This document shows, piece by piece, positions 22,419 to 59,259 of a stretch of 64,000 nucleotides of DNA. The notes under the pieces are model-generated. The model was not told the DNA's origin, did not search any database, and worked only from the letters and a program-made list of their open reading frames with translations. Source of the stretch: Chiloscyllium plagiosum (taxonomy: Eukaryota); assembly GCF_004010195.1 (NCBI RefSeq), contig NC_057719.1, forward strand, positions 43,926,847 to 43,990,846, in the 5' to 3' direction. Numbering within the stretch: position 1 is the stretch's first letter; each line of letters begins with the position of its first letter. The translations under genes were made by a program, and so were the position numbers.

Positions 22419-24980
22419 GTTGTGTATAGACCTCCTAACAGTGGTCAGGACCAGGGACGCAACATGTATCGGGAAATAGAGAAGGCATGTCAGAAAGGCA
22501 AGGTTACATTGATCATGGGAGACTTCAATAGGCAGGTGGACTGGGTAAATAATGTTGCTAGTGGATCTAAAGAAAGGGAATTCATAGAATGCTTACAGGA
22601 TGGCTTTTTGGAACAGCTTGTCATGGAGCCCACAAGAGAGCAGGCTATTCTGGACCTAGTGCTTTGCAATGAACCAGACTCTATAAAAGATCTCCAAGTA
22701 AGGGAACCCTTAGGAAGTAGCGACCATAATATGATAGAGTTCAGTCTGCAGTTTGAAAGAGAGAAGGCTAAATCGGATGTAATGGTGTTACAGTTGAATA
22801 AAGGTAATTATGAGGGCATGAGAGAGGAACTGACTAAAATAGACTGGAAGCAAAGGCTAACCGGGAAGACGGTAGAGCAAAAATGGCAGGAGTTTGTAGG
22901 TATAATTGAGGACACTGTACAGAGGTTCATTCCCAAGAAAAGAAAGATTAACAGGGGAGGGACTAGACAACCTTGGCTGACAAAGGAAGTCAGGAAATGT
23001 ATTAAAGAAAAAGAGAGATCCTATAAAATGGCTAAGAACAGTGGGAAATCAGAAGATTGGGAAGGATACAAAAGCAAACAGAGGATAACAAAGAGTGTAA
23101 TAAGAAATGAGAGGATCAAATATGAAGGTAGGCTAGCCAATAATATTAGAAATAATAGTAAAAGTTTCTTTCAGTACATAAGAAACAAACGACAGGCAAA
23201 AGTAGACATTGGGCCACTTCAAACTGATGCAGGAAGCCGAGTGATGGGAGATAAGGAAATAGCAGGAGAACTTAACAAGTACTTTGCGTCAGTCTTCACA
23301 GTGGAAGACATGAGTAATATCCCAAAAATTAAAGGGTGTCACGGGGCTGAGTTGAGTATGGTTGCCATTACGAAAGAGATAGTGCTAGAAAAGTTAAAAA
23401 GTCTTAAAATTGATAAATCTCCTGGCCCCGATGGGATACACCCTAGAGTTCTGAGAGAGGTGGCGGAGGAAATAGCAGAGGCATTGGTTGAGATCTTTCA
23501 AGAGTCACTGGAGTCAAGAAAGGTCCCGGATGATTGGAAGATGGCTGTTGTAACCCCCTTGATCAAGAAAGGATCAAGGCAAAAGATGGAAAATTATAGG
23601 CCAACCAGCTTAACCTCGGTTGTTGGTAAAATTCTAGAATCCATCATTAAGGATGAGGTTTCTAAATTCTTGGAAGAGCAGAGTCTGATTAGAACAAGTC
23701 AACATGGATTTAGTAAAGGGAGGTCATGCCTGACAAACCTGTTGGAATTTTTTGAAGAGGTAACAAGTAGGTTAGACCAGGGAAACCCAGTGGATGTGGT
23801 CTATCTAGACTTTCAAAAGGCCTTTGATAAGGTGCCACACGGGAGGCTGCTGAGCAAGGTGAGGGCCCATGGTGTTCGAAGTGAGCTGCTGGGATGGATT
23901 GAGGATTGGCTGTCTAACAGAAGGCAGAGAATTGGGATAAAAGATTCTTTTTCGGAATGACAAGCGGTGTCCCGCATGGTTCAGTGTTTGGGCCGCAGCT
24001 GTTCATATTATATATTAATGATCTGGATGAAGGGATTGGGGGCATTCTAGCGAAGATTGCCGATGATACAAAGTTAGGTGGACAGGCAGGTAGTACTGAA
24101 GAAGTGGGGAGGCTACAGAAGGATCTAGACAGGTGGGGAGAGTGGTCCAGGAAATGGCTGATGGAATTTAACGTGAGCAAGTGCGAGGTCTTGCACCTTG
24201 GCAAAAAGAATAAAAGCATAGACTACTTTCTAAATGGTGAGAAAATTAATAAAGCCAAAGCACAAAGGGATCTGGGAGTGCTAGTCCAGGATTCTCTAAA
24301 GGTAAACATGCAGGTTGAGCCCGTGATTAAGAAAGCGAATGCAATGTTGTCTCTTATCTCAAGAGGGTTGGAATATAAAAGCAGAGATGTACCACTAAGA
24401 CATTATAAAGCTCTGGTTAGGCCCCATTTGGAGTACTGCGTCCAGTTTTGGTCCCCACACCTCAGGAAGGACATACTGGCACAGGAACGTGTCCAGCGGA
24501 GATTCACACGGATGATCCCTGGAATGACAGGTCTAACATATGAAGAACGGCTGAGGATACTGGGATTGTATGCGTTGGAGTTTAGAAGATTAAGGGGAGA
24601 CTTAATAGAGACGTACAAAATAATACATGGCTTGGAAAAGGTAGATGCTAGGAAATTGTCTCCTCGTTTAACTGAAACTAGGACCCGTGGACACAGCCTT
24701 AGAATTAGACGGGGTCATTTCAGAACAGAAATGCGGAGACATTTCTTCAGCCAGAGAGTGGTGGGCCTGTGGAATTCATTGCCACGGAGTGCAGTGGAAG
24801 CCGGGACGCTAAATGTCTTCAAGGCCGAGATTGATAGATTCTTGTTGTCTAGAGGAATTAAGGGCTACGGGGAGAACGCTGGTAAATGGAGCTGAAATGC
24901 GCATCAGCCATGATTGAATGGCGGAGTGGACTCGATGGGCCGAATGGCCTTACTTCCACTCCTATGTCTTATGGTCTTAT
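22419..24980 (+). mobile_element. Young 5'-truncated CR1 LINE; ORF2 (APE endonuclease + reverse transcriptase) broken by one frameshift
   Basis: ORF 22422-23960 has YRPP, GDFN, LDLVL, SDH, KSPGPDG, YRP.SLTS, QHGF and YLDFQKAFDKVPH. ORF 23957-24895 has SGVP.GS, LYINDL, IADD and the CR1 C-terminus. 3' tail cttatggtcttat. Confidence 0.95.
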
Positions 24981-32238: not shown

Positions 32239-32451
32239 TTAGGTTGAATAACGGGTTGAGGCCATAGACAATGATGATGCTGATAGGTCCTTGAGAATTT
32301 TATTAAGGCCTGCAATGTTTTCTTCAAGCAGGTAGTTTTTTTTCTCTGTTGTCTTCTGTCTCTGTTCAGACATTTCAAGGGCCTTGAGGAGTTGAGCATT
32401 TTCAACATATAAATCTTTGACTTTTTCATCTGCTTTAGCATTCTTGGACAG
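32239..32451 (-). CDS. NIN: Ninein terminal coding exon (canonical long C-terminus)
   Basis: LSKNAKADEKVKDLYVENAQLLKALEMSEQRQKTTEKKNYLLEENIAGLNKILKDLSASSLSMASTRYST*; the KDLYVENAQLLKALE motif is characteristic of ninein-family C-termini. Acceptor tttacag| at 32452-32453. Confidence 0.95.
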   Translation of the reverse strand: MSKNAKADEKVKDLYVENAQLLKALEMSEQRQKTTEKKNYLLEENIAGLNKILKDLSASSLSMASTRYST

Positions 32452-33128: not shown

Positions 33129-33242
33129 TTGTTCTTTCTGTTGCATGACTTTGTCCTGAAGAAGTAACTTCATGTTCCTTAACTTATTTTCAACATCTTG
33201 CATCCTTTCTTCCATCTTTTTTAGCAGTCGTTCATATGCCTC
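33129..33242 (-). CDS. NIN: Ninein coding exon
   Basis: EAYERLLKKMEERMQDVENKLRNMKLLLQDKVMQQKEQ; tttag| ... |gtaagt; 114 nt, phase 0/0. Confidence 0.93.
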
Positions 33243-35107
33243 CTAAACAATAAAAATTAAACTTACTTCTAATTGTTAAAAAATTATAACAAAATCCTTA
33301 AAATATAGATAACATTTGATGGAAGAAGAGTTCTAATGCTACATGTTTGAACTTCTGCCAAAACAAAACTAAAATGGAAAGCACTATGCTTATGGTATTG
33401 TACACTTTGCTGAAACATTCTCTAAAATATTCCTAAATGACTAATATTTGGAGTGAGAGAAAACTAGGTCAGTTGAGGTTACAAATAAGAGGTCAGAAAG
33501 TTAGGTCAACAACATTTTTGAATTGCTCTAACATTCATTTGAAAGCGAGTTCTGAGTTCAAATCAATTAAGTTGTAACTAACACAAACATTTATGAGATA
33601 AATTAAAAATAAATAACATAAAAAATTTAAATTGAGTAAGGAGATTGTATTGCAGAGAGGCTGGGATTGTGTATCAGTGACACATAAGAACATTAAAGAA
33701 ATTCAACCAGAAGTTCCTAGCCATATTCTGCAGATTCAAATGGCAAGGCTATTGAATGAACACTCATGACTTTCTTGAAGCCAGTTCCATAAGCTTTCAG
33801 GTTAAAACTCCTGCAAAATCAAATTTGATAGATAGAACACTGTGTCCACGCTGAACAACATTTCTATCACCAGGTTCTGTTTTCTCGAATCTTAACTAGC
33901 CTGTGTTCCAGTGGAGGACAAAGAAAGTACTATCCTGACACGCTGCACCATTAACATTCATGACTGTGAAAAACATATCACCAATCTTTCACAAGAATAT
34001 TTCCAAATGTTTCACCTGCCCCACAAACTGCAACGTGCTTTGAGTCCCAATGTCTTACTGATGAGGCTGAGCAGCATCCAAGAAGGAAAGAAAAGGATGC
34101 AAATGTTGCATTTCAGATATTGTGAATATCCCGCCCCGTGTGCCCAAAGATCTGCAGGTTAAGAATCAGCCTGTTAACATCACAAGAAGATTAACAGCAG
34201 AAACTTGTAACCCTGTGTAGACATCATCCTGGAATCAAGGCATAGCTGACTAGTGGAGTTACGTGCATCAACACAGCAATAGAAATCGATTTACCATGGT
34301 TAATGTATACAATGGTTGAGACAAAAAAATTTGAATTGGGAGATTTGATAGTATGGAAATCTGTATACAACATATTTCAAATTGTTTGCACTACATTATT
34401 AATTAAAATGTTGCATCATTTACAGAGAAAAACCAAATTATATAAAAATCACACAGATTCAAATTAAAAACCACAGATTTATTGCAAAACTAAAAAAAGT
34501 GGAAGGGAGGGATCATTGTCAATCAGGAAACTGAAAATGATTATAAAGAAAAGTATTTTCTCATTTAGGCAGTAGGTATACAAAACATTAAAAAATGGAA
34601 TTATTAATAACATCAAAATTCATGTGAAGGTACAGAAAAGAAAGATAAATTTTCAAAATGAGAGGCTAACATTTATAAATCTTTTTTTTCTCAGAACAGG
34701 CACAAATCATGACTATTCATACATTCTCGAAAATACTTATGGTAATAATGTCAAATATAACTCATTGTTCAAAATTTATGGCTGCAAATAAACATAAGAC
34801 AATTTATTCTTGAAGACATGAAATAAATTAAAACAAATTAAATTTATGTGGAAATTGAAAGCTTAAATACATGATTAAGAGTTGTGATGAATACCTACAA
34901 AGCTAGAGAAGTTAAATATTTTCTTAAATAAAATTCAACACACATATTACACAGGACACTTGTACAAAAATTGATCTGATTTCTATGTCAAATACTTAAG
35001 AATAATTTATAACACAATTTATTTCCTCCAAAACTTAAGTGTAAATATTCTTTCAGTTCTGAGAATAATTTTTATTTATGATAAAAAGCTGTTTACAATG
35101 AAAACCT

Positions 35108-35170
35108 TCACAAGTGCCCAATCCTCCTGTAGGTATCAGCATGCACAGCTCGTTGCTCCGGTGGTAGGGC
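35108..35170 (-). CDS. NIN: Ninein alternative stop-containing exon (neuronal-isoform-type C-terminus)
   Basis: Polypyrimidine tract plus acceptor cttccattctttctatag| at 35171-35172, then ALPPEQRAVHADTYRRIGHL-TGA in phase 0. Nearly identical to the human/mouse alternative C-terminus I recall as ALLPEQRAVHADSYRRIGHL, and in the same intron (after ...SNTQQ). Confidence 0.85.
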   Translation of the reverse strand, partial: ALPPEQRAVHADTYRRIGHL

Positions 35171-37091
35171 CTATAGAAAGAATGGAAGTGATGCACTTCA
35201 CCCTGTATTATGTAAGAACTGCCTAAACCCCAACAATTCATTGTTTCAAATCACCAATACAAAACCCATTACAGGCAAAGCAAATTAAACACATATCTGT
35301 TTCAGTAAATTTACCTGCACCAAAATTTAAACTATAACCAGAAAATTGCAATGCTTTGTTTTGATAAAAGCATTTTCTTCATGTATAGGAATAAATGATA
35401 CTTCTGCAAGATAATCACACCAAGGCTGGATCTTTTCATTATGTTCATAATTATCTACATTTTCAGTAGGGGTCCCTTAACATGGGTCAAATTCTGGCAA
35501 ATGCTATCTCCTTAAACCAAGGCACCAAGGCTAACATTACAACCTCCCTTGTGCAAAGCAGTTAATACAGGCAGACTGAAGGTCAAAGTCTGACCTTTCT
35601 GAGTTGCACAGTTTAGTTATTATCAGCTTAATCAGTTGAGTTGAGTCACTGGAGGAGCTCTTGCAAGTAATTTTAATTGATTCAGCTTTCAGATGCAAGC
35701 GTTCAATCTTTTGAATATCCTTTGTTCTCAGAATTCACCTACCTTGTTACTCTACAGAGAAGGAGCTCTCTTTATGCTCACATTTATACAGCTGCTGAAT
35801 TTCATGATTTTTCTGGAGCTCTAGCAAGGTACGTGTGCTGCTAATATGATGTATACAGGCTCTTTGAAATATTTTGCATTGTCACATGCTGATAACTTAA
35901 AGGGCAAACATTTGTGTATGGCATACTTAGGATCTTACAGGAAGCTTTGCAATTAGAGGGAAAGTTAGTATGAATATGTTTCGTTCGCAGTTAACTTCCT
36001 AGGTTTCCTTGGACCATATTCCAACTGCAAACCAAAAGGATATCTCCTATCAATGGTTTATGTTTGGTGGTATGCATATGAACACAACTTATAGATGACT
36101 GATTTTTCTATAACTTGATTAATCAGCCATTATCATCATTTATTTATGTCAATTCAGTTAAAATGGCTGGGTAAATCATGACATGCTAAATTTAGGATAT
36201 ATTTAATATTGGTGAACAATCAAGAATTGCCAAATTACTCTAATGATTGCTCTGAACTTTAAATGGTCTGATTTTTTCATTCACCAGAATGGATGTCGTC
36301 AGCAAGACCTCTGCTAAGCCCAGCTGGTAAGACCAGCTAATGCTACAACAGCTATTCCATTAACATCTATCAATAAAACATGCATTAAAACAGATATGTT
36401 CTATTTTGGGTTTAAAGATAGTTTAACAGACATTAGTACTTTTAAAGGTTATGTGAAAGCGCATGAGTATTACACTTAAACTCATCTCGAGATGAGGAAA
36501 GGCTGTGGGCTTCTGATGACTGGAATGTTGAGTAGATGCATGATAGAGCTGTAAGCTGAGAGATCAGCTGTGTTGCTCAGAATTAAAGATTCCATTCTTT
36601 CATGGAATTAAGATGAAAAATAGTCGAAGCCCTGACAATTGAAGTTCCATCACATTCTAAGTGCCGGAGAATTTTCTTTTGTTGATGATGATCAAAAGCA
36701 TGTGCTCTTATTGCTGATTAAGATCAAATAAACTTAAACACTGAATGAATTAAGAATAAAGTGGCATAATTTAATTATGCAGCTGAAGTATACTTTTATA
36801 AAAGACTAATGATGCCATCAGAAAAAAAACTCCAATAAAATCTCATTTGTCAAGTGTATCAAGAGTATCCTGCAATCTGAGCAATGTATGTGGTATAAAA
36901 TAAACCTATAACCACCGCAATTTTCTTCATCTGAAAACATACAAATGCTGAACTAAATCAACAGCATTCCTTTTCTGATGCAAATAGGCTGGTACAAATG
37001 GAACTAAGTAAACCACACTTTTAGTGTTCCAAGGATTAAAGTAAAAATATTTCATTGAGGTTGGAATAAAAAATGTTTAGTACCACATTGA

Positions 37092-37655: not shown

Positions 37656-37976
37656 TATTCACACTCCCTGAAAAGCATCAGTAAATATATTGCAGACCTA
37701 ATCTGTTATTTTGTAGTACAAAAATTAAATAATTTCCTTTAAAGAATTGAACACAAATTGTAAAGGAAATGTAAGATTATCGCACAAATTGCCATAATAA
37801 TTTAGAATTTTAATGCTCTTATTGTAATTAACAAAGGATTATTGTCTACTTAAAATCTAAGACAATTATCAGTAAGAATACAAAGTACATCAGCACAGTA
37901 ACTTAGATTTTTCAAAATTACCTGGATTATTTCTAAACATGCAGATGAAATGTTTAGATAATTACTTGGTATTTAC

Positions 37977-38177
37977 CTGTTGTGTATTGCTTTCCATGAC
38001 TTTCTTGTCTAATTGCTCTTGCAGTTGATGACGTTGAACTTCCTCATGGCTTAAACATTGCTGAAGCTGAGCTAATTGGTCTTTTGGAACCATGGTGCAG
38101 ATTTGTTCTCGCAATTGTTGTAGTTCTCGAAGATTCTGTGACTGGCTAAATGTCAGGCTTGAATTTGACTGTAGCAA
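37977..38177 (-). CDS. NIN: Ninein coding exon
   Basis: LLQSNSSLTFSQSQNLRELQQLREQICTMVPKDQLAQLQQ...KVMESNTQQ; ctcag| ... |gtaaat; 201 nt, phase 0/0. Confidence 0.92.
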
Positions 38178-40291
38178 CTGAGTATATAAACAGATTAGGT
38201 AAATGCATCATTATGTAATTATTTAAAATACTTTCATTACATTACATAAAGGCAAAATACTACAGATGCTGGAAACAGGAACTTCAAAATAATCTCTTTG
38301 TTTTATAATTCTCCATTTACAGATATTTTGACTTCCAGCTTGCAGGCTATAAAGGGATCTTGGCTTCCTAAATTGTTCTTCTGACTTCTAGCTAAATTTG
38401 TAGCTATGGTACAAAACAGGAAACCTGTTTTAGATTCCTTCAGTTACAGGTTCCAGCAAAAGTACCGTAGTCAGAAACTTCAGCTTTCACTAAAAGTTAA
38501 TGTTCACATTTGTAATTTTGCTTCATATTGCACACATTGGTGCCTTGTGTTTGGAGAAGGCTAGTGCTGTAATTTCTAATATTCAAATGGAAATGTTATT
38601 TGTGCTCAATATCCAATAGTGCTCACTACCTACAAGCCAGAGTGTGACTTTATACACTCAATAAGACATGATGAACAAAACAAATAACTTTTTTTTTCTG
38701 AATGGTTTCACTGCTATCACTGCCATATAACGTGGTCATATGAGCTATATGTAAAAGAAGCAGCTGACAGAATATTCTTCTGAAGACTGTCATTGAGACA
38801 AAGGAAGTTCTTTGCATGGCAATGAGACATCCCTATTGAAGGCCACGACAGGCCATATTGACTACTGAAGGCAGTCTGGACAGAGGTGGCCGAGGAAGGG
38901 CAGCAACTGTGGATGGCTCAAGAGGACTTAGGTCCAGCGCTACAAGAGGATGAATGTTCTGCTGCACTCTACCATGGAAGGCACTGCTTTCTAGTCAATG
39001 CTCCGAACTCTGATGAGTTTAAGGTAGCATTGAAAGATTGCCATAGCATAGAGCTGCAGCACAGGAGATGAGAGTCAGGCACCTTCATCTGAAATCTCAT
39101 GTGCAATCAATGTCTGCCACTTCAATACAGCTACCAAATAATCAGTTACCAGTGCTGTGGTACCAGAGTGGTGCTGCTTCTCAAATGTCAGCCAAGGTTC
39201 ACATGCAAATCACAAATGGAGCTACATCACTCAGTGGCTCATGCACCATTAGGTTACTGATCTTTCATCATAACTAGGGGACTGGACAAATCTGATAGCT
39301 TTTTACAAAAAGTTGATATGGGACAGAATACAACCACAGAAGAAGATTTCCTTTTGAGTTGAGCTGCCTTTCTTTTTTTCATGGGATGTGGGCATTGTTG
39401 ACTCGACCAACATTTATTGCCCATCCCTAATTGCCCAAGAGTCTGAAGTGATATGTAGACCAGACTAGGTAACGATGGCAGTTGCCTTCATAAAGACATT
39501 AATGAACCAGATTGGCTTTTCCAACAATCAGCATTAATTCCAGATTTGTATTGAAATCAAATTCCATCATCTACCATGGTGGGATTTGAACCTGGGTCCC
39601 CAGAACATCACTTGGGTTTCTGGATTACGAGTCCAGCAATAATGCCACTGGTAATTGCCACCCCCTCAAGGTGAACTTTGCTTGCCTGCTCTGGTCAGGC
39701 TTGCTGGCATTAGCTGTTCCACTTGGGCAGGCTTGTTGACCTTGTCAGGCTTCACTCCTTAACACTGTAAGCATTTAATAAAAATAGAAATACTGTATAA
39801 GACTGAGAATTCTCATGAACTGATCAGCATTGAGAGGCTGCACGCAAATAAGCATGTAAAGAAATGGCTTTGTTATGAAGCAATCAAATTACTGATGAAA
39901 TTTATGCTCACAGGAATTTGGATCAAGAAGTCTACCTTATCAGGTTCACAACACAAATATATAGTTGGATTTGTGAACCAAAGTGTTTCCTGTTTTCTGC
40001 ATTATGGAGAATCCTCAATCCGATGGAGAAACATTGATATTTTTGAATGAACCTATTCAGAGATGTTATCACACATCTCTGGAGCAGGTGGGACTTGAGT
40101 CTTGGCCTCATGGCTCAGAGGTAGGAACATTACCACCTGACTGGGGCAAATGGCACTTCACCCAAGACCTTCTGGCCCAGAGGCTGCACCACAAGACTAT
40201 CAGCTCAGTGTTATAATGGCAATGAACACTAACACCTTCACCATCAGTAGAATCCAGGCTGCTATGTTATTCTGAGTTTTACAGTACATAC

Positions 40292-40405
40292 CTTGTCACC
40301 AGTTTCCATTAATTGACTCTCCAGGTTGGACTGCTTTTTTCGCAGCATTTCATTCTCCACATTGAGGACTTTCAGTTCATGTTCAAGTGAGACAATTAAC
40401 TTAAT
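40292..40405 (-). CDS. NIN: Ninein coding exon
   Basis: IKLIVSLEHELKVLNVENEMLRKKQSNLESQLMETGDK; ggcag| ... |gtatgt; 114 nt, phase 0/0. Confidence 0.9.
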
Positions 40406-49076: not shown

Positions 49077-49190
49077 CTTGCCAACGCACCGGTTCACTTC
49101 ATCATTCAATGCTTCTTTCTCCCTTGTCAAGTTTTCATTTATGCGCTTTAGAGCAGTGACTTCATCCTCCAATTTGTTGTATCTGGACAA
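49077..49190 (-). CDS. NIN: Ninein coding exon
   Basis: LSRYNKLEDEVTALKRINENLTREKEALNDEVNRCVGK; ttttcag| ... |gtatga; 114 nt, phase 0/0; followed by a 136-nt intron. Confidence 0.9.
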
Positions 49191-53705: not shown

Positions 53706-55731
53706 CTGTTTTATGGCACCATTGGAACAAAAGGATTTTCAGAGTTGCAGGAACCATCATTTCTTCAAATTATTACTACTTACACATGTCTCAGATAAAG
53801 GAAACTGCAATTGTTCCTGTTGCACAGTGCTTTAATCATTTGGAATTAGAATTATTTATAATTAATAAACATTAATAATTAATTATTTATAATTACCAAC
53901 AAATTACCAACATATGGTCCTGAAATGGAGTGTCATTATCTTCAGAGTAAACTCAGTGACAACAGAACAATAGATTAATGTCTTCTTACACATTGAATTT
54001 AATTTGACGATTATGAACATTGTGGACTATATTTCCTTGCTAGTTCAGTGTTAGCATATTATGTATAAACACATTGATGCTGATTTATTTTCTCTCTTGG
54101 CTGCAGGGTGTCTTTTCAAATAAAATCTGTATCAGCTGATTACTTCACAACCATCAAAATGCCTGAATGTTTATTAAAATACATTAAAGTAGTGAGAAAT
54201 TTGTTCTTGCCTAAGCTCTCTTACAACATAAAAATGACATGTTTCAAAAGGGCTTCACTGACTTTTAAGTGCTTTCAGAGGCACTGAACCTCTGCAGGGC
54301 ATGATATAAATGCAAATTTGTTCTTTCTTTAGTGGAAATATGGCAAACCATTATGATTTATCCCAGCTTTCTGGTTGCAAAGTTATTTGAAACAACTTAC
54401 AAAGAGTGACAAAGACTGCAGAACACAGAAATAAAAAGCCTTTAATCTTATAGACTCAAGGGAACAGAATCCTGGTCTTTGCAGTTTGACCTCGTAATTC
54501 AACAGCTTTAGTCCTGGTGTCAGTCTATTGAATGTGTGCAGCACCCACCCCCAAGCCATTATATCCATCCTGGTCGCCAGACTGTAGCTGTCTGGTCAGG
54601 AAAGCTGGGATATTGTCCAACTTCTACACTATTTCAGTGGCAGGTGAATTAGTGGGGATGAGGTGTTTTTTTGAAATGGTGGTAACAGATCGAGGAGAGG
54701 GAGGGGGGGGGGGGGGTGATCCACTGGAGGTTTCACTGTGTAGCAGTCAAACTTAAACCGGACATTTTCAATTTTAATATTCCAGGCTCAGGAGAAGTGG
54801 GAATGCTCTTTTTGAGCATACAAAAACATAATACAACATTTTTCTCAGATCTCCAGCATTCCCTTAATAGTTAGACAACTGAATCCGTGATAATAACAGT
54901 TGGCAAAAACTTATGCTCTTCTGTGAAGGAGGTTTGTTGGTTATGATGGTGGGAACTTTGTCAGGTGAAAGACTGACCGGGGTTGGGGGGGGGAACCCCA
55001 TTGCCTTCCTGTCTCCAGACCAATTAAGATCTGTGGTGAAAAAAATCCATGGATAGTAACTTCTGCCCTCCCTTCTATTTAAGGCCCTAAAGGGTCAGAT
55101 CAATGGCCTCTTAAACAGCCTCAATCTGCCACTGTTGGTATATTGTAGCAGCTTGCTGGGAGTACGCTATGCAGCATACAAATAAAGAAAACCCTGATAT
55201 GTATTGTTTGATGACTCCAAGTGAGAATCCTTTGTTTAGAGGCACATAATGCCTGTAAGAGGGCCTGCAATCAGGAATTGAGGAATGGGGGTTTTGGGTC
55301 CACTAAGAGCCAGCTGTTACTCTTACTGTCGACTCCTCTACAGCCTCAGTCTATGATTATTAACCCTAACTCAATGGATGTTGTTCCAGCAGCAGTAACT
55401 GCCTCCAAAGTGGTGCTGTTGTTCAAAAGAACTGTTGGCTGTTGACTGGCTGGAAAGTCTTTGTTTGCACTCTTTCCATTCCCATAGAACGGCCTCCCAA
55501 CTGCTGATTTGAATGTATTACTGGGCATATCTTTCTTTTTGAAAGATATGAACCTGAGACCCCATCACAAGATTCTACCTGAAGTGAAACACATGTGGTG
55601 CAAACTGGTCATTTGCAAACTAATTTCCAAAGCAGTGTTCCATGGCTACTGAAACATCTCAACTTATGCATTTAATACTAAACAATTAATGGGTAATTAA
55701 AATAAAATATTTGAAAGGTATAATAACTTGC

Positions 55732-55801
55732 CTGGTTGTTTAGAAGTTCTATAATTCTCTGAGCAGTTATTTTGTCATCCTGCAAAATCTCCACTTGTTG
55801 C
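55732..55801 (-). CDS. NIN: Ninein coding exon with GC donor
   Basis: (K)QQVEILQDDKITAQRIIELLNNQ; tttacag| acceptor, CAG|GCAAGT donor; 70 nt converts phase 2 to phase 0, exactly as the flanking exons require. Confidence 0.85.
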
Positions 55802-57521: not shown

Positions 57522-58726
57522 GTTGAAAAATGTGGTGCTGGAAAAACACAGCAGGCCAGGCAGCATCCGAGGAGCAGGAGAATCAATGTTTCAGGCATAA
57601 GTCCTTCTTCAGGAATGAGGCTGGTGTGCCAAGCAGGCTGAGATAAAAGGTAGCGGGGATGGAATTTGGGGGAGGGGCGCTGGGAATACGATAGGTGGAA
57701 GGAGGAGGGTGAGGGTGAGGGTGATAAGCCGGAGAGGGGGTGGGGGTGGAGAGGTCGGGAAGAAGATTGCAGGTCAAGAGGGCGGTGCTGAATCCGGGGG
57801 TTGGGACTGAGATAAGGTGGGGGGAGGGGAAATGAAGGAGCTGGAGAAATCTACATTCATCCCGTGTGGTTGGAGGTTCGACGATGCTCTTCACCGCATC
57901 TCCTCCACTTCCTGCTCCTCCGCCCTTGAACCCTGCCCCACGAATCGTCACCAAGACAGAACCCCACTGGTCCTCACCTTCCACCCCACCAACCTCCGGA
58001 TACATCGTATCATCCTCCGTCATTTCCGCCACCTCCACACAGACCCTACCACCTGGGATATATTTCCCTCCCTACCCCTATCATCGTTCCGGAGAGACCA
58101 CTCCCTCCGTGACTCCCTCGTCAGGTCCATACCCCCCCACCAACCCAACCTCCACTCCCGGCACCTTCCCCTGCAACCGCAAGAAGTGCAAAACTTGAGC
58201 CCACACCTCCCCCCTCACCTCCCTCCAAGTCCCCAATGGATCCTTCCATGTCCGTCGCAAATTCACCTGCACCTCCACACACACCATTTACTGTATCTGC
58301 TGCACCCGATGTGGTCTACATTGGGGAGACAGGCTGCCTACTTGCGGAACATTTCAGGGAACACCTCTGGGACACCGACAACAACCAACCCAACCGCCCT
58401 GTGGCTGAACACTTTAACTCCATCTCCCACTCCGCCAAGGACATGCAGGTCCTTGGCCTCCTCCATCGCCAGACTCTGACCACATGATGCCTGGAGGAAG
58501 AGCGCCTCATCTTCCGCCTAGGAATCCTCCAACCACACGGGATGAATGTAGATTTCTCCAGCTTCCTNNNNNNNNNNNNNNNNNNNNNNNNNNNNNNNNN
58601 NNNNNNNNNNNNNNNNNNNNNNNNNNNNNNNNNNNNNNNNNNNNNNGATGCTGCCTGGTCTGCTGTGTTTTTCCAGCACCACATTTTTCAACTCTGGTCT
58701 CCAGCATCTACAGTTCTCACTTTCTC
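57522..58726 (+). mobile_element. Penelope-like element (RT C-terminus + GIY-YIG remnant) with inverted 5' arm
   Basis: + strand remnant PLVLTFHP...FRRDHSLRDSLVRS...GTFPCNRKKCKT...IYC..C..C..YIGETG..L.EHFREH...PVAEHFN; left arm about 57521-57876 inverted; perfect 15-bp TSD CTAGATTGAAATGTA at 57507-57521 and 58727-58741. Confidence 0.88.
58568..58646. other. Assembly gap (79 N)
   Basis: Run of N inside the right arm of the fold-back element. Confidence 0.99.
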
Positions 58727-59133: not shown

Positions 59134-59259
59134 TTTAATTCCTTTCGTGCTTCATTCAATTCTATGATTTTCTCATGATAAACCCCTTCTTTCTCCCTCA
59201 ACGTGGCCTTTTGATCTTTTAAGATGTCATTTGCATCAGTGGGTTCTTCAGATTCACCA
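59134..59259 (-). CDS. NIN: Ninein coding exon
   Basis: (S)GESEEPTDANDILKDQKATLREKEGVYHEKIIELNEARKEL(K); tctgcag| ... |gtaagt; 126 nt, phase 2/2. Confidence 0.85.

Follow-up and report, generated by a model that had tools for sequence, protein, structure and literature searches.

Which ninein exon lies near the 3′ end of the shark ninein gene, and what would its use do to the protein? The locus is a 64,000-nucleotide (nt) stretch of Chiloscyllium plagiosum DNA (contig NC_057719.1, positions 43,926,847 to 43,990,846; hereafter the window) that holds the 3′ part of the gene; coordinates below are those of the window, and the gene and all its exons lie on the minus strand. A preliminary description read a short exon here, with coding positions 35108–35170, as the RBFOX-dependent exon by which neurons replace the ninein C terminus. 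We find that it is a real, known and very old alternative last exon that was mistaken for the neuronal one: what stands of that description is an ancient ninein exon that replaces the C terminus and is likely a last exon, and what falls is its identity with the neuronal exon. The exon, its slot between the counterparts of mouse Nin exons 30 and 32, its conservation and its difference from neuronal exon 29 are direct observations. Beyond these, we are fairly confident in an overall reading in which the exon likely acts as an alternative last exon that swaps 108 residues for 20, likely removes the part of ninein linked to CEP250 and possibly adds a degradation signal. Exon and tail are already on record, in databases and, for mouse and human, in a 2025 paper.

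A 20-residue tail in the slot of mouse exon 31

The gene in the window is the ninein (NIN) orthologue, as judged by its similarity to named nineins, its N-terminal EF-hands and its mouse-like exon sizes and order. With the exon at 38174–37977 as the query, a search returned 18 proteins (17 named), all from cartilaginous fishes and called ninein or hypothetical or EF-hand protein, among which whale-shark ninein was the best named match (92% over 66 residues); an EF-hand_7 domain lies at residues 10–70 of the window-encoded P0022 and of P0027. Exon borders mapped through P0027, set beside the mouse sizes (PMC11422218, table S3), gave shark/mouse lengths for exons 19 to 28 of 126/126, 70/70, 207/213, 114/114, none/123, 114/114, 147/147, 180/180, 141/150 and 114/102 nt, and for exons 29 to 32 of none/61, 201/198, the present exon/523 (exon 31) and 114/113–114 nt. 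Mouse exons 23 (123 nt) and 29 (61 nt) are without a counterpart in the mapped shark model. The mouse order is exon 28 (102 nt), 29 (61 nt), 30 (198 nt), 31 (523 nt), 32 (113–114 nt) and 33 (PMC11422218). The shark has counterparts of exon 28 (40292–40405), exon 30 (37977–38177), exon 32 (33129–33242) and exon 33 (the distal last exon, coding part 32239–32451, 70 codons and TAA), and the exon-30 donor joins either 35170 or the competing acceptor at 33242. Because the alternative last exon sits between the exon-30 and exon-32 counterparts, it is, by its position, the counterpart of mouse Nin exon 31, the terminal exon of ninein ISO2 and human isoform 1.

The exon is preceded by a pyrimidine tract and AG acceptor (35171–35190) ending in CATTCTTTCTATAG at 35171, and its codons (35170–35111) translate to ALPPEQRAVHADTYRRIGHL, 20 residues that are followed by TGA at 35110–35108 and are in frame with the phase-0 donor CAG/GTAAAT at 37977. 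For comparison we used L001, a bird-like, partly spliced metagenome contig in which 79 of 84 residues match bird nineins, the one confirmed among at least 596 pattern matches. The bird tail peptide aligned to the shark intron with a score of 93 (reached by 0 of 100 shuffles) and the bird exon DNA with a score of 207 (0 of 200 shuffles); the acceptor, 88% pyrimidine over 16 nt, is joint top among 13 acceptors. The strong acceptor noted in the preliminary description is borne out by these values, and the pair of UGCAUG motifs, the AATAAA and the weak donors that it listed are all where it placed them.

In mouse, use of a terminal acceptor after the upstream neighbour gives ISO2 and ISO3 a 20-residue tail and a different 3′ untranslated region (UTR), with 90% identity to human isoform 1 (PMC12135376). 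The shark exon resembles mouse exon 31 and human isoform 1 in its slot between exons 30 and 32, its phase 0 and its 20-residue tail closed by a stop, and its tail shares 17–18 of 20 residues with eight named mammal species. It differs in having P at position 3 and T at position 13; mouse exon 31 has its own 3′ UTR, and the shark UTR is without clear similarity to the bird UTR.

Conservation of the tail was surveyed in fetched nineins longer than 1,000 amino acids (aa), gathered by biased searches in which 120 of 549 matches were listed. Of 52 nineins from cartilaginous fishes, 12 end with the tail, as do 50 of the 146 others and, in addition, one bullfrog fragment. The last 20 residues of the window-encoded P0019 and P0022 match the exon translation completely (100%), and the tail is annotated in Chiloscyllium punctatum, Stegostoma tigrinum, two Scyliorhinus, Mustelus, Heterodontus, Heptranchias, Pristiophorus and the chimaera Callorhinchus. 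Outside the fishes it occurs in birds, a turtle, a skink, a caecilian, armadillo, sheep, oryx, beaver, degu and bats. Armadillo, beaver, caecilian and birds share 18/20 residues with the shark, and oryx and skink 17/20, with the sheep, degu, bat, armadillo, oryx and beaver tails all at 17–18/20 and the bullfrog tail at 16/20; the median over the 63 tails is 18/20. At the DNA level, 51 of the 63 coding nt are identical to positions 2951–3013 of L001. A search of 1.84 billion representatives gave five matches, one with the tail (bullfrog) and four unrelated, and no Pfam family matches the 20 residues. Since the tail is common to chimaera, sharks and tetrapods, we infer that the alternative last exon was already present in the last common ancestor of jawed vertebrates, and the proposed origin before the split of cartilaginous and bony fishes holds.

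Two side observations concern these sequence sets. The short metagenome peptides P0204 and P0208, which fall in the Callorhinchus ninein cluster, look unrelated to ninein and point to a clustering artefact; their TTLGYGD motif is, we presume, channel-like. The bird models P0084, P0102–P0104 and P0112 apparently enter the same terminal exon through an upstream acceptor and read it in a different frame, for a tail about 58 residues long.

The four neighbouring exons, compared between six tetrapods and the shark, retain 16–20 of 38, 24–31 of 67, 20–26 of 38 and 42–51 of 70 residues (36–73%). The tail is thus better conserved than the adjoining constitutive exons, as had been suggested from the sequence, and with 90% of it preserved between shark and mammal next to exons at 36–73%, it must, by this comparison, be under strong selection. 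What the selection serves is not stated in the literature searched, where we also found no report of the conservation of the exon, or of ninein as a case of an alternative last exon, in fishes; PMC12135376 already reports the mouse–human conservation of the tail.

Selection might instead act on the RNA, with the exon conserved as a regulated splice or termination element, the peptide a by-product and truncation all that matters. Of the tail residues that are identical in shark and bird, 11 of 18 also have the same codon, against 5 of 19 in the final 45 codons of exon 30 (Fisher p = 0.049); the bird retains the exonic UGCAUG; and the exon serves as untranslated sequence in the mouse neuronal transcript described below. 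However, the codon comparison is one species pair with a borderline p value, and 7 of 18 codons differ silently while the residue is kept, length and stop are fixed, and the changes among the 63 tails are few and mostly mild. Silent codon changes with residues, length and stop retained are the mark of selection on a peptide, and we give an exclusively RNA-level explanation a slim chance; RNA-level constraint may add to the constraint on the peptide.

That the exon is spliced in and terminal is very probable from annotation and from other species, and the suggestion that it may act as an alternative last exon is most likely right. Mouse exon 31 is a 523-nt terminal exon (PMC11422218), and L001 joins exon 30 directly to the alternative last exon and then runs 2.1 kb past the stop, a stretch in which exon 32 is absent (score 26, against a self-score of 188). 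In the shark, the first AATAAA after the stop, a candidate poly(A) signal, lies at 35071–35076, with further copies at 35023, 34808 and 34483, so that four fall within 630 nt of the stop. A single AATAAA is weak evidence, as one occurs within the 60 nt that follow the stop in 10% of 2,000 shuffles of this 24%-GC stretch; three in 508 nt arise in 6.5% of shuffles. The first AATAAA of L001 lies about 400 nt after the stop, and the shark copy at 35076 is without a counterpart at that distance. Past the stop, 34706–34344 (minus) has a weak AT-rich similarity to L001 3107–3459 (3 of 200 shuffles), which includes an A run and is possibly due to chance.

The in-frame stop would also suit a poison cassette exon, one that a weak donor joins to 33242 and whose transcript undergoes nonsense-mediated decay, and GT dinucleotides follow exon ends at 35112, 35106 and 35097. 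These three donors, the closest to the stop, match only 4 of 9 consensus positions each. Such decay usually requires a stop 50 nt or more from the junction, and with the 35106 donor the stop would be 2 nt away, too near for that rule. Together with the terminal nature of mouse exon 31 (523 nt; PMC11422218) and the unspliced run-on of L001, this makes a poison exon very improbable.

Several points weigh against reading the exon as an ancient ISO2-type last exon. For the shark, database models and other species are the basis for its inclusion, its tissue and its 3′ end, and L001, which retains an upstream intron, may be an unfinished pre-mRNA. The match to the mouse and human tails is drawn from position, lengths (9 + 66 + 20 = 95 residues) and other mammals rather than letter by letter. 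Finally, no ray or ray-finned fish protein with the tail is among those fetched (biased searches; 120 of 549 matches listed).

A different exon from neuronal exon 29

The neuron-specific exon of Zhang et al. 2016 is named in PMC11422218 as the 61-nt mouse exon 29, which has the 102-nt exon 28 before it and the 198-nt exon 30 after it (tables S3 and S4). It resembles the shark exon as a short exon near the Nin 3′ end whose use removes the long C-terminal coiled coil. By contrast, it lies one intron upstream, has 61 nt and a donor, encodes another peptide and has its stop in exon 30 (PMC11422218, PMC6429586 and PMC13756106). The shark exon follows the 201-nt exon-30 counterpart; it carries its own in-frame stop at nt 61–63, with no GT after nt 61, in place of a donor and a frame shift; and its tail is not the NSVVG...EIVCE peptide of exon 29. 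The proposed identity with the short RBFOX-dependent neuronal exon therefore fails on position, length and peptide.

Exon 29 itself is recognizable in amniotes. In L001 it occupies 323–383, 61 nt between AG and GT with the donor AAG/GTAGAG, and encodes NSVVGTSREGCSSLSEIVCE; of the 19 nt of the published mouse exon-29 primer, 16 match this exon and at best 12 match the shark intron. Five fetched proteins (two from beaver and one each from goat, ptarmigan and skink) switch frame directly after exon 28 and continue with a related peptide. Downstream of this exon, L001 has a GCAUG at 32 nt (415) and a UGCAUG at 733.

In the shark intron where an orthologue would sit (38178–40291), no exon 29 was detected: four amniote peptides aligned at shuffle level (scores reached by 16–91 of 100 shuffles), as did the bird exon-29 DNA (152 of 200 shuffles, or 19 of 200 with flanks), and none of 25 enumerated AG..GT candidates is 61 nt long. 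Among the 52 cartilaginous-fish proteins, none scores above 30 with the exon-29 peptide, against 68–101 for four amniote proteins. A pair of UGCAUG motifs at 39245 and 39207 was considered as a mark of exon 29 and rejected, with no recognizable exon before the pair and repeat pieces in the intron. A strongly diverged exon 29 could escape detection, as the lizard peptide P0203 also scores below 35 against the bird peptide. On these comparisons exon 29 is likely absent from the shark; among the sequences compared it is found in amniotes only, and it is apparently of later origin than the alternative last exon.

The mouse evidence ties the two exons together in one transcript. The neuronal transcript ENSMUST00000220689, without exon 18 and with exon 29, ends in exon 31 as untranslated sequence (PMC11422218), and PMC12135376 counts the neuronal isoform among those with a different 3′ UTR. 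According to PMC6429586, neurons include an 'exon 29a' through RBFOX and leave out '29bc'; this '29a' may be what RefSeq numbering makes of exon 31, or may reflect confusion with exon 29. The '29a' primers given there match neither the bird exon 29, exon 30, the tail codons nor the bird UTR (8–14 matches). Because the neuronal transcript ends in exon 31 and '29a' may mean exon 31, our verdict on the identity goes only part of the way.

These links bear on the proposal that, in sharks, the alternative last exon is a neuronal, RBFOX-promoted switch that releases ninein from the centrosome and does the job of amniote exon 29. Its use removes the same C-terminal region as exon 29, which went undetected in sharks (0 of 52 proteins above a score of 30); electric-ray models skip the exon-18 counterpart (P0015 and P0016); ten tetrapod proteins shorter than 1,450 aa carry the tail, one of which was confirmed by alignment to lack exon 18; exon 31 is the last exon of the mouse neuronal transcript, and PMC6429586 calls '29a' neuronal. 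A UGCAUG also lies 34 nt after the upstream donor (37938–37943), a candidate RBFOX site, and the exon-30 donor is the only one of 12 mapped donors with this motif within 150 nt. A second candidate site (35140–35145) lies in the V-H-A codons of the exon and is kept in L001 at 2976; given the density in the window, UGCAUG is expected by chance in about 3% of 63-nt stretches, so that a single motif is weak evidence. Against the proposal, the exon is not exon 29 in position, length or sequence, and in mouse and human the isoform with the tail is a centrosomal, non-neural one (PMC12135376). No UGCAUG lies just downstream of the exon, the usual activating place (nearest on the same strand, 30274), and 33 short proteins have the long tail, so that in the models exon-18 loss and the tail exon are uncoupled. 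In mouse nucleus accumbens, inclusion of exon 29 is 0.86–0.99 (PMC11422218) and exon 31 makes up about 22–41% of 3′ ends (a rough density estimate from exon counts); from these values, most brain transcripts would stop before the tail, which is probably seldom translated there. We regard the neuronal switch as improbable.

Binding of RBFOX to the exonic UGCAUG, if it occurs, would more probably repress the alternative last exon than favour it, by the position rule and by analogy with calcitonin/CGRP. There too the alternative exon, exon 4, is a terminal exon. An exonic UGCAUG represses calcitonin exon 4 (PMC2777236), and the motif lies near the acceptor in both genes, at +26 in ninein and +45 in calcitonin; unlike in calcitonin, no UGCAUG lies just upstream of the ninein acceptor (nearest, 36384).

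Upstream in the gene, the counterpart of the big exon 18 ends in the window (64000–63312, minus). The intron after it (63311–59260, minus) holds three UGCAUG motifs (62186, 61942 and 61657) and lacks both ACUAAC and ACUAAU, the QKI motif that PMC6429586 reports on the downstream side of mouse exon 18. In the Narcine bancroftii models P0015 and P0016, which both keep the long tail, 553–554 residues ending at the exon-18 border are missing, indicating that exon-18 skipping is annotated in a ray. This corrects the evolutionary picture: what is common to sharks and mammals is a terminal exon of the ISO2 type, joined in one ray by skipping of exon 18.

CEP250 and a possible C-degron

Use of the 35170 acceptor replaces 108 residues (38 + 70) by 20, and P0027 has 1,962 and P0022 1,874 residues. 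The tail would thereby replace the part of ninein tied to the centrosome linker CEP250, as association with CEP250 is ascribed to the downstream exons '29bc' (PMC6429586). Mouse ISO2 was sequenced from a macrophage line; it lies on the centrosome, is less abundant and is not needed for centrosome cohesion (PMC12135376). Because the lost exons are CEP250-linked and ISO2 is centrosomal but dispensable for cohesion, the short form likely still anchors microtubules but no longer acts as a linker. On the basis of this mouse work, it is reasonably probable that the shark short form would stay on the centrosome through its central region without serving cohesion; it would leave the centrosome only if the big exon 18 were also skipped.

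The last six codons of the exon (35111–35128) encode R-R-I-G-H-L, which has the pattern R-x-x-G-x-x. This end is found in all 63 tails, including the bullfrog variant, and R-x-x-G within the last 0–3 positions in none of 120 long tails. R-x-x-G followed by 0–3 residues is the C-degron pattern of CRL2-APPBP2, and R-x-x-G-x-x is one of its two usual registers (PMC10614623). The tail resembles the CRL2-APPBP2 degrons of ASCC3 (-RPRGLR) and MRPL28 (-RASGQ) (PMC10614623) in its Arg and Gly two apart, two residues before the end and a hydrophobic last residue; it differs from them in that the ninein end, a candidate, is made by exon choice on a dimeric, 1,874-residue coiled-coil protein. If the end were read by the CRL2 receptor APPBP2, the life of the isoform would be shortened. 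We consider such a degron a tentative idea, possible but doubtful, prompted by the motif. The C-degron pattern is the new lead offered by the tail, and, if true, it could account for differences between ninein isoforms in level and function.

The literature text searched does not name ninein among the substrates of APPBP2, and screen data tables may bear on the question. The main text of PMC10567573 has no whole-word 'NIN', and one supplement each of PMC10567573 and PMC12132302 has no 'RRIGHL'; the data tables of both and the supplement of PMC10614623 may be informative. The G-H-L end also approaches a loose peroxisomal targeting pattern, which we presume to be unlikely to matter for a protein of this size and set aside.

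The functional reading has its own counterweights. Studies conflict on whether the central region or the C terminus of ninein mediates CEP250 binding and centrosome targeting (PMC12135376). The proposed degron is a two-residue motif found after the fact, which over four registers would arise by chance in about 1.5% of cases (by background residue frequencies). The 63 tails are related by descent, and conservation extends to nearly all of the 20 positions rather than to R and G alone. The lower abundance of ISO2 may lie at the RNA level.

Combining these elements, we offer a rather doubtful scenario from the sequences, in which, since the jawed-vertebrate ancestor, the exon would trade a CEP250-linked coiled coil for a CRL2-APPBP2 C-degron, so that splice choice would set both the anchoring and the half-life of this dynein adaptor, with the exon and exon-18 skipping forming the older centrosome release in sharks and exon 29 being a later tetrapod or amniote addition. 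Taken by itself, the claim that the exon and skipping of the big exon 18 are an older centrosome release in sharks, to which exon 29 was added later in tetrapods or amniotes, is unlikely.

Further features of the window

Among the upstream exons, the 126-nt exon at 59259–59134 (minus; mouse exon 19) is skipped in the window-encoded model P0023, and the 70-nt exon at 55801–55732 (minus; the mouse exon 20 counterpart) has a GC donor, CAG/GCAAGT at 55731, giving a GC-AG intron. At 49190–48827 (minus), two 114-nt exons stand against mouse exons of 114, 123 and 114 nt, the 123-nt exon being without a counterpart in the mapped model. A run of 79 N occupies 58568–58646. In the introns that flank exon 30, pieces at 40136–40047, 39667–39379 and 37493–37094 are repeated elsewhere in the window at 68–82% identity. 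On the 3′ side of the gene, two long overlapping stop-to-stop frames of 513 and 325 codons (22419–23960 and 23918–24895, plus strand) are perhaps part of a retroelement.

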